A stretch of DNA of 64,000 bases from Promethearchaeota archaeon (GTDB lineage: Archaea; Asgardarchaeota; Lokiarchaeia; Sigyniarchaeales; SOKP01): the NCBI GenBank assembly GCA_029838195.1, contig JALGVJ010000014.1, positions 32,796 to 96,795 of the forward strand. Direction: 5' to 3'. The notes beneath the pieces are model-generated. The model saw nothing but the letters and a program-made list of their open reading frames with translations. It did not search any database and was not told where the DNA came from. The translations under genes were made by a program, and so were the position numbers. The stretch's first letter is position 1; each line of letters opens with the position of its first letter. Below, piece after piece: positions 25,924 to 62,337 of this stretch.

Positions 25924-27586
25924 TTAAATCAATTTTTTTGAAACATAAGGACCATCTTTTTGATATCCTTGGTTATAAAACCATTGTTTAACGCCTAATC
26001 CACTAATTACAGCTATTTTTTTTAAACCAAATTCTTCTTTTGAAATTTTTTCTGCTTGTTTTAATAATGTTTTTCCGAGACCTTTGTGTTGGATTTGACC
26101 TTGTTCGCGTGGCGGGGCACCCCAAGGAACTAACATGCCAACGATCTTGATTTCTCGCACGATAGAAGTGTTGCCATCATTTAATTCCTTTCTATGTGCT
26201 TTTTCAGACGGTATTCTCAATCTTAAATAGCCTAATAAGCACGTTCTTTTAATGTCTTCATGAGAGAGAAAAATTTCTTTACCTTCTGAGGCATCATACT
26301 CGTAGCTTAATAACTTAATTTCATTTAAAAGCGCAGCATTGTCTTGATATTTAGGGGTAAGATATCCTAATTCTCTACACCTAATACAACGGCATGAAGC
26401 ATTTTTTTCTTTTAATTTCTCATGGATTAACTGTCTTAAGTTGCTTTTTTTACAGCCCGCTTGAATTAAATAGGCAGGGATATCTCGCATTATTCTCTGA
26501 ATTCTAATATAAGGAGGGAGAGTTTTTTTCACAGACGCTAATAGATCTATTAATTTTTCTTCCGAATAAGGCACATATTTTCCTTTTTTCCACCAAGAAT
26601 ATAACTCAGTTCCTTGAATCACTAAAGTAGGATAGATTTTTAACATATCAGGTCTATAATTAGGATCACTAAATAGTGTTTGGAACATCTCAAGATCTTT
26701 CTGAAGCGAAGAGCCAGGCAAATTGGGCATTACATGAAGATTTACTTTGAATCCAGCATCTTTAGCTATTCGAATTGCTTCAATAGAATCGGCAGTAGAA
26801 TGGCCTCTTTTTATTAATTTATAAATATCATCATAAACGGTTTGCACGCCGATTTCTACTCTTGTCGTACCATAATGAAGCATTAAATCAACATGTTCTT
26901 CCTTGCAGTAATCCGGTCTTGTTTCAATTGTCAATCCAACTAATCTTTTACGTGAACGTTCCGCTTTTTTTTTTGCTTCCTCTAATGAAGTCGTATTTTC
27001 CCCGATTATTCCTTCTAAAGCCCCTTTAACAAAATTTTCCTGATATGAGTGATCTGTCGATAAGAAGGTCCCTCCCATTACGATGAGCTCAATTTTTTAT
27101 GGTGATCCAGGGCATGTCCCGAATCAAGTCCACATCATGACCGATGGCGTCTAAATCAGAAATTCGAGAAAGAACTTGTTCCTTAGGGTCATAATTACAA
27201 TAAATCGACCTCATGGCTGCCGGTTCTCTTCCCGTATATGATTTAGCAACTTTTTCTCCAGGTTGGGAGTGGACACCCGGACAATAAACACATTCACCCG
27301 GACATAGCAAGGGTTTTGTCATGATTGCGATGACCGTTACACCCGAAAGCGTTCTCGTTGAGCGTCTTTTCAGTAATTTTCGTAAAATTTTTTTTTCTTC
27401 TTCAGACGCATGACTCAAGATGGTAGCATTTTTGATGACTTTTGGATAGTGATACTTTTTACCAATCTTACCCTTGAGATTAGTGATTTTGCTTTTAGAA
27501 AAATTGGGTTTCTTAATTAAAACTTCAATTATTTCCCGTGCTATTTTATTTTCCAAATTTAAACTATTATTATCTTTTACATCCAT
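25924..27586 (-). CDS. elp3: tRNA U34 acetyltransferase Elp3 (radical SAM + GNAT), two exons: join(27586..27128, 27096..25924), 543 aa
   Basis: RTLSGV..IAIMTKP, CPGECVYCPG, KSYTGREPAAMR in exon 1; MGGTF, TIETRPD, RVEIGVQ, KIYPTLV, QHKGLG in exon 2; removing 31 nt gives GHDVD-KIELIVMGGTF. Confidence 0.92.
27097..27127 (-). other. Predicted 31-nt BHB-type intron in elp3 mRNA
   Basis: Central helix GTGG/CCAT, bulges AC^T and AA^A, inner helix TGATTC/GGATCA plus GGG/CCC; excision restores the frame. Confidence 0.85.
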
Positions 27587-27789
27587 GGTTGAAACATGAC
27601 ATTCTATTATTCATATTAAATTAGCATCGAAAATATTCTTTTTGGGTCAATTTTTTACCATTTATTAATGCTTTTAATAATTTTGGAAAAATTTTTCCTT
27701 AAAAAAAGAGGGTTTTGAAAGAAGCTTCTACTGCAAGGGAGCTTGAAAAATTAAATGATTAATAACATGAGGAGATAAGGAAATAATGT

Positions 27790-28638
27790 TTAAATCAACA
27801 CTTTCTTTCCCGTAAAATCTCTTTTAAATCTTCCGAAATCATCAACTTTTCTAAGAATTTCAGAATCAAACACGGGGCCATCTGTACATGTTAATAACCC
27901 TAAAGGATCTAACACGCACAGTCCACATAATCCACATCCACATCGCATAATTCTTTCAAGACTAGCTTGTAAAGGAATTCCATATCGTTCGCATGTTTTA
28001 AAAATTTTAAACATCATTTTTTCTGGCCCGCACGTGTATACTAAAAGATTTTTTGTTCTTTCCCTTGGATAGTCTTTTAAGATTTCCGTGAATATATCCG
28101 AGGCCAATCCTTTTAGCGCATAACTCCCATCATCCGTACAATAGAAATTTGATACATTATCCTCAGGAAAATTTTTACAAAATTCTTTAAATATCATCTC
28201 ATCTCTTGTTTTGATGCCTATAACCAACTTGAAGGGATGGTGATTTTCCTTTAATTCTAAAATTAAAGGGCGTAAGGGCGCAAGTCCAATTCCTCCAGCA
28301 ATTATAAATACCTCCTTGCATTTTTCTGGAGGAAGTTCAAATCCATTTCCAAAAGGACCTCTTATTCCAATATAATCGCCAACATTCAAATCTAATAAAG
28401 CTTTCGTGCATTCACCCACTTTTTTAACTGTAATGCTCCAATTTCCTTTAGAATCATAATGGGAAAGAGAAATGGGAATTTCATCCACCCCCGGCACCCA
28501 GACCATGATGAATTGGCCCGGTCTCGGAGAAATATAGTTATTATTTTTTGGATCCACCGAAAAATTGAGGGTTTTTACATTTTTACATTCTTCAACAACA
28601 TGCTCTATTTTTACAGTTCTCACTACATTTTTACTCAA
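27790..28638 (-). CDS. pyrK: Dihydroorotate dehydrogenase electron transfer subunit
   Basis: PGQFIMVW, RGPFGNGF, GGIGLAP, CGPE, MRCGCGLCGLC. Confidence 0.93.
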   Translation of the reverse strand: MSKNVVRTVKIEHVVEECKNVKTLNFSVDPKNNNYISPRPGQFIMVWVPGVDEIPISLSHYDSKGNWSITVKKVGECTKALLDLNVGDYIGIRGPFGNGFELPPEKCKEVFIIAGGIGLAPLRPLILELKENHHPFKLVIGIKTRDEMIFKEFCKNFPEDNVSNFYCTDDGSYALKGLASDIFTEILKDYPRERTKNLLVYTCGPEKMMFKIFKTCERYGIPLQASLERIMRCGCGLCGLCVLDPLGLLTCTDGPVFDSEILRKVDDFGRFKRDFTGKKVLI

Positions 28639-60336: not shown

Positions 60337-61893
60337 TTGTTAAAATTAAAAAACAAAAGCGTTTTAATAAAAATTTACAATAATAAAATTTTTGAGATTT
60401 TAATGATTAAAATGAATATCATGAATGTTAAAAAAGTAGGAGAGCAGATCTACGAGATACCAAAACAAACATTAATGGTACGCGTGGGCAATCAAATTCA
60501 AAAATTTAACATGTTGGTACCAGCAAAAATTTATGCGAATGATTATATCATGGAAAGAATCAAGCAAGATCGAACTTTAGAACAAATCGCTAACGTTGCT
60601 TGTTTACCAGGAATTCAAAAACACGCCATCGCTTTATCTGATGCCCATCAAGGATATGGATTTTGTATTGGGGGTGTGGCAGGCACGGATGCTGAAACAG
60701 GAATGATCTCTCCCGGAGGAGTGGGATATGATATAAACTGTGGCGTGAGAATATTAAGAACAAATTTCCTTGAAAAGGATATTATTTCCTCTCTTCCCGA
60801 CTTATTAGATTTTATTTTTAAGAATGTTCCTTCGGGATTAGGATCCCAAGGAAAGTTAAGGATGACATTACCCGAATTAGATTTAGTTTTAAATAACGGA
60901 TTAACTTGGGCATTAGAAAATGGGTATGCTCTTGAAGAAGATTTAGAACATTGTGAAGAACGGGGATGCTTGCCCGATGCCAATGCTGATTTGATATCAT
61001 ATAAGGCAAAACAGAGAGCTTTACAGCAATTAGGTTCCTTGGGAAGTGGCAACCATTTTTTAGAAATTCAAAAAGTGGATGAAATTTATAATGAAAAAAT
61101 AGCAAAAGAACTAGGAATTCACGAAAAAAATCAAATCACAATCATGATTCATACGGGAAGTAGAGCTTTAGGACATCAGGTATGCACGGATTCTTTGAGA
61201 AATATTGAAAGGGCCATGAAAAAATATAATATTCAAGTACCCGATAGAGAATTAGCATGCGTACCTGCGAATACGGAAGAAGCTAAAAATTATTTGAGTC
61301 AGATGGCTTCGGCGGCGAATTTTGGGTTTTGTAACAGGCAATTAATTACTCATTGGGTTAGAGAAGCCGTCCAAAAATTTATAAGAAAAGATATTGATGA
61401 GATGGATCTTCACTTGATTTATGGCGTATGTCATAATATATTGAAAATAGAAGAGCATGATGTAAATGGGAAGAAAATGAAATTAAATGTCCACCGTAAA
61501 GGAGCCACACGAGCATTTCCGCCCCATCATCCTGATCTTCCAAGCGATTACAAGGCAATCGGGCAACCTGCACTCATTCCGGGCACCATGGGGTCCGCCT
61601 CCTATTTATGCGTGGGAAAACCAAAAGCCATGGAATTGTCCTTTGGTTCGACAGCCCATGGATCTGGTAGAGTACTGTCCCGTTCTAAGGCAATAAAGAA
61701 ATATAGAGGGTCAAATGTAAAACAAGAATTAGGAAAAAGAGGAATATTGGTAAAAGCAGCATCCATGAGAGTAATAGCGGAAGAAGCTCCGGGAGCTTAC
61801 AAGGATATTGACCAAGTCGTGAACGTGAGTCATGACTTAGGCATCGTTGAGAAAATAGTTCGACTGATTCCTATCGGAGTGATTAAAGGATGA
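60337..61893 (+). CDS. rtcB: tRNA-splicing ligase RtcB
   Basis: DAHQGYGFCIGGV, GVGYDINCG, GSLGSGNHF, HTGSR, HN, HRKGAT, HGSGR, EEAP.AYK; true start probably near 60412-60421. Confidence 0.97.
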   Translation: MLKLKNKSVLIKIYNNKIFEILMIKMNIMNVKKVGEQIYEIPKQTLMVRVGNQIQKFNMLVPAKIYANDYIMERIKQDRTLEQIANVACLPGIQKHAIALSDAHQGYGFCIGGVAGTDAETGMISPGGVGYDINCGVRILRTNFLEKDIISSLPDLLDFIFKNVPSGLGSQGKLRMTLPELDLVLNNGLTWALENGYALEEDLEHCEERGCLPDANADLISYKAKQRALQQLGSLGSGNHFLEIQKVDEIYNEKIAKELGIHEKNQITIMIHTGSRALGHQVCTDSLRNIERAMKKYNIQVPDRELACVPANTEEAKNYLSQMASAANFGFCNRQLITHWVREAVQKFIRKDIDEMDLHLIYGVCHNILKIEEHDVNGKKMKLNVHRKGATRAFPPHHPDLPSDYKAIGQPALIPGTMGSASYLCVGKPKAMELSFGSTAHGSGRVLSRSKAIKKYRGSNVKQELGKRGILVKAASMRVIAEEAPGAYKDIDQVVNVSHDLGIVEKIVRLIPIGVIKG

Positions 61894-61902
61894 TTCTATT
61901 TT

Positions 61903-62337
61903 TTATATGTCAAATACAACTCTAATTTCCCAAATTTTGTCTTTTTTCTCAATTTTCATTAAGGAATAAGTAATAGCTTTCACTTCCGTGCCGATTTCAT
62001 GTTTTCTCTTGTCAAATTTTTCCCCTTTTAAGACGCTTGTTAATTCAAAAAAGTCATTGCCTTTAATCTCCGGAATTGTTATGTCGCTGAAGACTAATCC
62101 TTCTACATCGAAAATATAAAGGAGCTCGGATAAAAAATCAAACAGAAGGGCTTCTTTATCCTCTGCTTTAACATTTATTATTTTTTCTTCCCTTAGAGAG
62201 ATTTTTTTGAGATCTGGAGTTATGACCGTCATTAAGCTATAAGCGGCTTGGGCATAGACTTCTTCTAATGTGGGGGCCCAACATATCACTTGAACATCGG
62301 CAGTATGATCTTCAAAAATAAATCCTTTTTCCTTCAC
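61903..62337 (-). CDS. Archease (RtcB activator)
   Basis: DHTADV, EVKAITY, VFDI; convergent with rtcB. Confidence 0.95.
   Translation of the reverse strand: MKEKGFIFEDHTADVQVICWAPTLEEVYAQAAYSLMTVITPDLKKISLREEKIINVKAEDKEALLFDFLSELLYIFDVEGLVFSDITIPEIKGNDFFELTSVLKGEKFDKRKHEIGTEVKAITYSLMKIEKKDKIWEIRVVFDI

Follow-up and report, generated by a model that had tools for sequence, protein, structure and literature searches.

Evidence for bulge-helix-bulge introns within the elp3 and rnhB messenger RNAs of an Asgard archaeon

Can the small inserts that interrupt two conserved protein genes of an Asgard archaeon be introns, removed from mRNA by the enzymes that process interrupted tRNAs? The question is raised by a stretch of 64,000 nucleotides (nt), hereafter the window, which is part of contig C23 of a metagenome-assembled genome (MAG; 4.5 Mb, 94 contigs, about 32% G+C) and in which elp3 and rnhB carry inserts of 31 nt and 30 nt respectively. 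The closest relatives of this elp3 in public genomes carry the label Promethearchaeota (Loki-type Asgard archaea). A preliminary description of the window had reported inserts resembling bulge-helix-bulge (BHB) motifs in both genes, introns in all four tRNA genes, and the presence of rtcB and archease but not endA, and had proposed EndA/RtcB-dependent mRNA splicing. The inserts are borne out by exact junctions, by their folds and by the conserved motifs that their removal restores; the tRNA introns were recovered by Rfam and BHB analysis, outside the part of the window to which that description was confined; and the gene content was confirmed by Pfam matches, with EndA-family open reading frames (ORFs) on other contigs. 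The analysis supports the view that the two inserts are archaeal BHB introns within protein-coding mRNAs, and their splicing by EndA and RtcB is considered very probable. The predicted splicing is supported by the exact geometry of the inserts, the existence of intron-free orthologues, same-site introns with compensatory changes, the single-copy status of both genes and the presence of the machinery in the genome.

The elp3 gene, on the minus strand, is divided between two ORFs that differ in frame. In profile searches, the first (27586..27089) holds the ELP3_N domain and the second (27078..25924) holds the radical SAM domain, matched at profile positions 67-158, together with Radical_SAM_C. 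Exon 1 (27128..27586, minus strand), whose start codon is the ATG at 27586, covers the ELP3 N-terminal domain and the beginning of the radical SAM domain with its Fe-S cysteine part, and ends with GHDVD. It is followed by the 31-nt intron (27097..27127, minus strand) and by exon 2 (25924..27096, minus strand), which begins with KIELIVMGGTF and carries the remainder of the radical SAM domain as well as Radical_SAM_C and the C-terminal region. With the insert retained, the frame of exon 1 meets a TGA about 10 codons beyond the 5' splice site. Once the exons are joined, the sequence reads GHDVD/KIELIVMGGTF (a slash marks a junction here and below) within a stop-free product of 543 aa, which is 67% identical over 534 aa to the product of the uninterrupted gene of a related genome, G024. 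The gene is present as a single copy in the genome.

The second case, rnhB, was apparent as an ORF (32313..31738, minus strand) that begins only at position 29 of the RNase_HII profile. The missing N-terminus of RNase HII (M..GIDEAGR, with the catalytic GIDEAG motif) was found upstream at 32436-32399. This segment is exon 1 (32399..32436, minus strand; 38 nt, MTEIVCGIDEAGR), so that the catalytic Asp-Glu motif of the enzyme sits in an exon of 13 codons. The 30-nt intron, a relaxed BHB (32369..32398, minus strand), contains an in-frame TAG, and exon 2 (31738..32368, minus strand) begins with GSVIGPLVICG, its first base completing the Arg codon. Joining yields GIDEAGR/GSVIGP and a stop-free product of 222 aa; rnhB is likewise a single copy in the genome.

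The position of the cuts is given by a rule found within the window itself. The canonical 22-nt BHB intron of tRNA-Lys(CUU) (gene at 14160..14255, plus strand; intron at 37/38, 14198-14219) shows on each strand a 4-nt helix strand, a 3-nt bulge and a cut after the second base of the bulge. Applied to elp3 and rnhB, this rule yields exactly the junctions that protein homology requires, as cuts after bulge base 2 on both strands restore the 543-aa and 222-aa frames and match the intron-free orthologues to the base. Unconstrained folding gives the succession of helix, 3-nt bulge and helix for both inserts, with minimum free energies of -15.7 kcal/mol for elp3 (z -3.3) and -18.6 kcal/mol for rnhB (z -2.6). 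Both therefore display the arrangement by which a BHB motif is recognised, two 3-nt bulges on opposite strands with a 4-bp helix between them, or an accepted relaxed form of it (HBh' or hBH). The elp3 fold comprises a central helix of GUGG with CCAU, a 5' bulge AC/U, a 9-bp inner helix and a 3' bulge AA/A; its outer helix is nearly absent, which corresponds to the HBh' type of relaxed BHB. For rnhB, the central helix of CGGG with CCCA consists of 3 bp and a C.A mismatch, the bulges are AG/A (5') and AA/A (3'), the loop has 5 nt, the inner helix counts 9 bp with one mismatch and the outer helix between the exons 4-5 bp.

Related genomes were compared at both sites. In a DNA alignment, elp3 lacks the insert in 18 of 20 related genomes, among them the sole congeneric genome (G001), and the gap is exactly the 31 nt. 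A genome of another genus (G006) carries at the identical point a different 31-nt sequence with the same fold, whose bulges, central helix and 3' end are kept while the 7-bp inner helix has another sequence. For rnhB, the sequences show that inserts of 29-30 nt, each with in-frame stops, occur at the same codon in six other genomes of four other genera, that is in 7 genomes and 5 genera in all, and the gene is uninterrupted in G001, G013, G017 and G024. One of these introns measures 29 nt, which excludes a translated in-frame insertion. Both introns are thus absent from G001, of the same genus, and both present in G006, of another; as their presence does not follow the grouping by genus, repeated loss or gain is implied.

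The survey of rnhB was extended to 120 more genomes of the family by a protein search, for which the extent of the open frame enclosing the match, not the DNA, served as a proxy: a frame of at most 219 aa closes at the intron site, and one of at least 225 aa takes in exon 1. The proxy agreed with the sequence in 11 genomes; G016 is intron-bearing at 224 aa, its gene being about 5 aa longer. Judged by this open-frame proxy, the rnhB intron is present in about 64 of 111 family genomes, across many genera.

The seven rnhB introns known by sequence were aligned, and 80% of the cells in the predicted helices are paired. Changes on both sides are found in 10 of 18 pairs, including 8 of the 9 inner-helix pairs, a level of covariation that was reached in 0 of 500 shuffles, and controls with slid partners pair at only 26-50%. 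The intron half of the central helix moreover tracks the third base of the Gly codon (GGG with CCC, GGC with GC, GGU with GU or GC). The structure is hence kept by compensatory change at both sites, in rnhB by this covariation and in elp3 by two copies which have different inner helices and the same fold.

This conservation bears directly on the explanation that survives best among the alternatives, namely that elp3 and rnhB have become pseudogenes or have been disrupted by the insertion of small DNA elements, and that the full-length proteins are no longer made. Each gene as annotated is indeed broken by a stop or a frameshift, and the same genome has a truly degraded gene on contig C92, with several stops and frameshifts. 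But elp3 and rnhB are the only copies of near-universal archaeal genes, and their exons are otherwise intact and 57-67% identical to uninterrupted orthologues. In both, the break falls in a region that the protein cannot do without. The rnhB insert, furthermore, sits at the same codon in the seven genomes of five genera with changes that preserve its fold, and by the proxy in more than half of the 111. Decay would neither preserve a structure nor leave the remainder of the gene clean; the pseudogene explanation is therefore disfavoured and held to be improbable.

A different possibility is that no RNA is spliced and that the ribosome skips the insert, by programmed bypass of the T4 gene 60 type or by frameshifting. 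A hairpin and a stop belong to the bypass signal of T4 gene 60, and the inserts are short hairpins with a stop inside or soon after. The matching take-off and landing codons of a bypass are absent, however: the elp3 take-off codon would be GAC, with no GAC at the 3' end of the insert, and the codons of rnhB are unmatched as well. Nor does elp3 have a stop directly after the last codon of exon 1. What is conserved is the 2-nt offset from the 4-bp helix on both strands, which is the rule of EndA, and the same architecture is found in the T-loop of a tRNA gene, where translation is irrelevant. Skipping by the ribosome is accordingly given very little credence.

Just as little is given to the idea of split genes, in which each pair of exons would encode two polypeptides that assemble, the hairpin being intergenic. 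An ATG located 10 nt into elp3 exon 2 does open a 384-aa product present in the ORF list. For rnhB, in contrast, the first polypeptide would be a peptide of 13 residues bearing the catalytic Asp-Glu, and neither start nor spacing is conserved among the exon 2 frames. An intergenic spacer leaves unexplained why the BHB motif is kept at lengths of 29, 30 and 31 nt, and a break inside a radical SAM barrel or a Walker A loop (the latter in an ATPase gene described below) is implausible for separate chains. Finally, an artefact of assembly or sequencing, conceivable for a metagenome bin of 94 contigs with 7.9% contamination, has a negligible probability, since homologous inserts occur in several independently assembled genomes and a contig of an independent metagenome run (X2, 339 nt) spans the elp3 insert with 0 differences and 0 gaps, so that this insert is not an artefact of one assembly. 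For this DNA check, contigs of four runs were aligned to the window; among those listed, one bridges the elp3 intron and none the rnhB intron, which counts neither for nor against the latter, and no intron-free form of the DNA was seen.

The reading of the inserts as spliced introns also calls for suitable enzymes. The window contains rtcB (60337..61893, plus strand; PF01139, E 1e-165), encoding the 3'-phosphate/5'-OH RNA ligase, and, convergent with it, the gene of the RtcB activator archease (61903..62337, minus strand; PF01951, E 5e-43), both in single copy in the genome. The endonuclease gene endA lies outside the window, and three EndA-family ORFs are found on other contigs. One of 202 aa has both EndA domains and is most similar to the alpha subunit of Aeropyrum pernix (3p1z_B, E 6e-36), with which it aligns gap-free through the Crenarchaea-specific loop, keeping the Lys-Pro-Arg (K44-P-R46 in A. 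pernix). It is this specificity loop, with its lysine, that enables such enzymes to cut relaxed motifs outside the standard positions (PMC3241643), and Asgard EndA has been reported as an (alpha-beta)2 type with the specificity loop (PMC5829648). The two further ORFs are a full-length paralogue of 199 aa and an ORF of 106 aa, either of which may supply the other EndA subunit. The subunit typing called for in the preliminary description reached one loop-bearing alpha subunit. Judged by its genes, the host genome encodes both an endonuclease with the broad-specificity loop and an RtcB-type ligase.

G024 shows the same order of elp3, rnhB, rtcB and archease on a single contig although it has neither intron, so that the proximity of rtcB to the two interrupted genes is ordinary synteny, in line with the earlier caution that it could be coincidental. 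Nearer to rnhB, nop5 and the fibrillarin gene, which encode components of the box C/D ribonucleoprotein, adjoin with an overlap of a few bases (29710-31627, plus strand) and converge on it.

In the mechanism proposed for both genes, the transcript around the insert would fold with the splice sites in 3-nt bulges flanking a 4-bp helix. A heteromeric EndA would then cut each bulge behind its second base, producing ends with a 2',3'-cyclic phosphate and a 5'-OH, and archease-activated RtcB would join the exons and probably circularise the intron of about 30 nt. Only the joined mRNA would encode the full-length Elp3 and RNase HII.

Several points weigh against this interpretation. Both motifs are relaxed, that of elp3 being without an outer helix, and the central helix of rnhB has either 3 standard pairs with the C.A mismatch or, in the minimum-energy fold, a 3' bulge of 4 nt. 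The composition of EndA is known only as one loop-bearing alpha, a full-length paralogue and a short third ORF. The figure of 64 in 111 genomes rests on open-frame lengths and not on sequence, and the host genome is a MAG with an estimated contamination of 7.9%. Moreover, no run recorded as RNA was listed for positions 25900-32500 of the window, and cleavage and ligation of the two mRNAs in vivo are inferred from DNA.

The tRNA genes of the window offer a further view of the same architecture. All four are interrupted and lie at 12.8-14.3 kb; three of them, with their introns, score above the Rfam threshold and the fourth below. Besides tRNA-Lys(CUU), tRNA-Val(UAC) (12777..12886, minus strand) has a non-canonical 37-nt BHB intron after position 33 (12817-12853), with a central helix paired 4/4, an inner helix of 7 bp and an outer helix of 3 bp. 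The gene of tRNA-Ser(GCU) (12907..13020, minus strand) is the one which falls below the threshold when unspliced, and a clean tRNA is obtained after removal of a 30-nt BHB intron in its T-loop (12921-12950; bulges AA/A and AA/U). The layout of this intron is that of the mRNA introns, 1 + arm + 5-nt loop + arm + 4 + 2, where 1 and 2 count bulge bases and 4 is the strand of the central helix. In the remaining gene, tRNA-Ser(UGA) (13896..14002, plus strand), the anticodon loop is interrupted by an intron of about 24 nt, the BHB motif of which was not resolved by a strict BHB scan. A weak box C/D-like Rfam match (E 0.39) was noted at 14544-14631.

Over the whole genome, ARAGORN reports only 21 tRNAs, all with introns, and tRNA-Ser(GCU) is invisible to it; most tRNA genes of the genome are therefore probably hidden by non-canonical or multiple introns. 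This result is consistent with the heavily interrupted tRNA genes already published for Asgard archaea (bioRxiv 10.64898/2026.10.13.758758).

Are elp3 and rnhB isolated cases? A scan of the genome by structure alone, in which BHB geometry was combined with the merging of two open frames upon removal, returned 202,538 candidates and was rejected as an estimator. A stricter version gave 9,078 candidates against about 8,560 decoys in which the 3' half was taken from 400 nt away. The background being too high, the structure-only approach was dropped. Instead, all open frames of this genome were compared with those of 2.75 Mb (60%) of the relative G024, cases being retained when one frame matches two adjacent frames separated by 25-40 extra nt, and a local search for short exons was added. 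With this partial reference, the homology screen recovered elp3, rnhB and three other clear cases, that is 5 in this genome. The three are a Toprim-domain (primase-like) gene with a BHB-type intron of 37 nt, the TFE gene with one of 30 nt and an AAA_5 ATPase gene with one of 30 nt, the removal of which restores the Walker A motif GGHGGGK/TT.

The portion of G024 that was compared, 2.75 Mb, yielded about 16 introns between 29 and 32 nt long; in most of them the central pairs are 4/4 and the inner helix is nearly complete. Among the genes that carry them are those for a thiolase-like protein, an AMP-ligase, Sir2, a Mg-chelatase-like ATPase and a ribosomal protein. Two introns lie within one thiolase-like gene, and one occurs at an identical site in two paralogous AMP-ligase genes. 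Examples among all the G024 loci are 1087337-1087554 on the minus strand of contig C6 and 523950-523980 on the minus strand of contig C9. All these counts are lower bounds, as the screen misses introns common to both genomes and genes without an orthologue.

Several expectations of the preliminary description can be assessed from these data. Many hidden mRNA introns had been anticipated from two cases in about 60 genes; their existence is upheld by the 5 clear cases here and by about 6 per Mb in G024, but the density is not, the latter value being roughly one fifth of that of the window (2 in 64 kb). As the hosts listed for G024 show, nucleic-acid-processing genes are not specially affected. 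The idea of actively spreading introns finds no support. The introns are uniform in shape: 14 of 18 well-scoring ones measure exactly 30 nt, and among these 14 the first base is A in 11 and position 29 is A in all. Yet introns at different sites have a mean pairwise identity of 0.54 and a maximum of 0.72, against a mean of 0.52 for shuffled introns, whose per-round maxima average 0.68 and reach 0.73. Introns at different sites thus share a shape and not a recent common copy, and a mobile intron family, for which an identity no higher than that of shuffled sequences gives no sign of recent copying, was rejected.

Other interruptions met in the screen were set apart. In two genes, an AIR-synthase-like one (about 39 nt, C92) and one for an MFS transporter (31 nt, C87), the additional DNA at the junction shows no convincing BHB motif, and both are ambiguous. 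Neighbouring hdrA-like and mvhD-like frames on C30, C42 and C75, separated by 32-59 extra nt, were rejected as intron-bearing genes, their counterpart in G024 being one frame of 1167 aa, which points to gene fusion or fission. Many single in-frame stops in the comparison of ORFs were left uncounted, most of them being probably due to antisense shadow frames. On C92 (minus strand, 69347-70703), the counterpart of a 412-aa G024 orthologue has 3 in-frame stops and 2 frameshifts, with no added DNA, and resembles a true pseudogene, in contrast to the intron-bearing genes. An MvhD/HdrA-like gene on C75 (minus strand, near 47840) has an in-frame stop at the Cys position of a CNWCSY motif, several MvhD/HdrA-like paralogues match a G024 protein with a single stop at residue 205, and a tRNA-SeC is reported by ARAGORN. 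It is possible that these genes with an in-frame stop encode selenoproteins.

Taken together, the occurrence of the architecture of about 30 nt in a tRNA T-loop and in at least three other protein genes suggests that in this lineage mRNAs belong to the normal targets of the tRNA-splicing machinery. Splicing of the endonuclease type would then be required by several unrelated genes, most of them essential, in the prokaryotes that stand closest to eukaryotes, and the presence of the introns varies between close relatives. Gene callers split or truncate such genes, as seen with elp3, called as two ORFs, and rnhB, called without its catalytic N-terminus, and systematic errors in Asgard proteomes and metabolic reconstructions are to be expected in consequence. 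The system also offers a tractable natural setting for how non-spliceosomal introns arise, persist and vanish in protein genes. In a wider and rather doubtful proposition, splicing by the tRNA machinery would be routine for dozens of mRNAs per genome in Promethearchaeota, perhaps as a control point, with repeated gain and loss at sites able to fold into a BHB. Were the control point real, the supply of the tRNA modifier Elp3, RNase HII, TFE and the primase-like protein, among others, would depend on the activity of EndA, RtcB and archease, and protein output would be tied to the state of the RNA-processing system. A regulatory role, like active spread, is speculation.

Among known systems, the HAC1 and XBP1 mRNAs of eukaryotes are cut and joined without a spliceosome in a manner that changes the reading frame, the ligation being performed in metazoans by RtcB with archease. 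There the cuts are made by the kinase-endonuclease Ire1 at twin stem-loops with a conserved loop consensus, under regulation by stress, whereas EndA is predicted to act here on a BHB. The fold of elp3 and rnhB is indeed a BHB and not a pair of stem-loops, no search for Ire1 having been made. No common ancestry with HAC1/XBP1 splicing is implied.

In Haloferax volcanii, HVO_1309 has a 46-nt BHB intron in its 5' untranslated region, confirmed by circular-RNA sequencing (circRNA-seq) and an in vitro assay (PMC7714728). It resembles the present cases in making an mRNA a substrate of the archaeal splicing endonuclease. It differs from them in that it lies in an untranslated leader, so that no reading frame is broken, and in that the Haloferax enzyme is of the alpha'2 type, with strict specificity. 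The same motif, size class and enzymes are shared with the non-canonical tRNA introns of Asgard and TACK archaea (PMC5829648; bioRxiv 10.64898/2026.10.13.758758), which are likewise patchy in their gain and loss between close relatives and with no copying evident between sites. The preprint on Asgard tRNA introns mentions mRNA 0 times (bioRxiv 10.64898/2026.10.13.758758). Those introns sit in tRNA genes, unlike the introns of elp3 and rnhB, and literature searches found no report of mRNA introns in Asgard archaea or Lokiarchaeota.

The closest precedent is cbf5, in the pre-mRNA of which a BHB intron was reportedly described for Crenarchaeota by Watanabe in 2002 and by Yoshinari in 2006. This intron of the pseudouridine synthase gene in Crenarchaeota was documented further (PMC2738675, Yokobori 2009), and the 2020 Haloferax study names cbf5 as the only other archaeal mRNA example (PMC7714728). 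In the papers that could be searched, cbf5 is likewise the single gene with such splicing inside an archaeal coding sequence, next to the one case in a 5' untranslated region. The likeness is considerable: a short BHB intron in a coding sequence, patchy among relatives, in a host with an EndA of broad specificity. Removal of the cbf5 intron by a heteromeric endonuclease has been shown, whereas that of the elp3 and rnhB introns is a prediction read from genomic DNA. The present introns belong to Asgard archaea of the Promethearchaeota and not to Desulfurococcales or Sulfolobales, have elp3, rnhB and other genes as hosts, number from several to dozens per genome in place of a single target, and share a uniform hairpin of about 30 nt with non-canonical tRNA introns. 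Mechanistically, then, they are the same kind of intron as that of cbf5; the novelty lies in the lineage and the host genes, in how many targets each genome has and in a mini-hairpin layout that is uniform.

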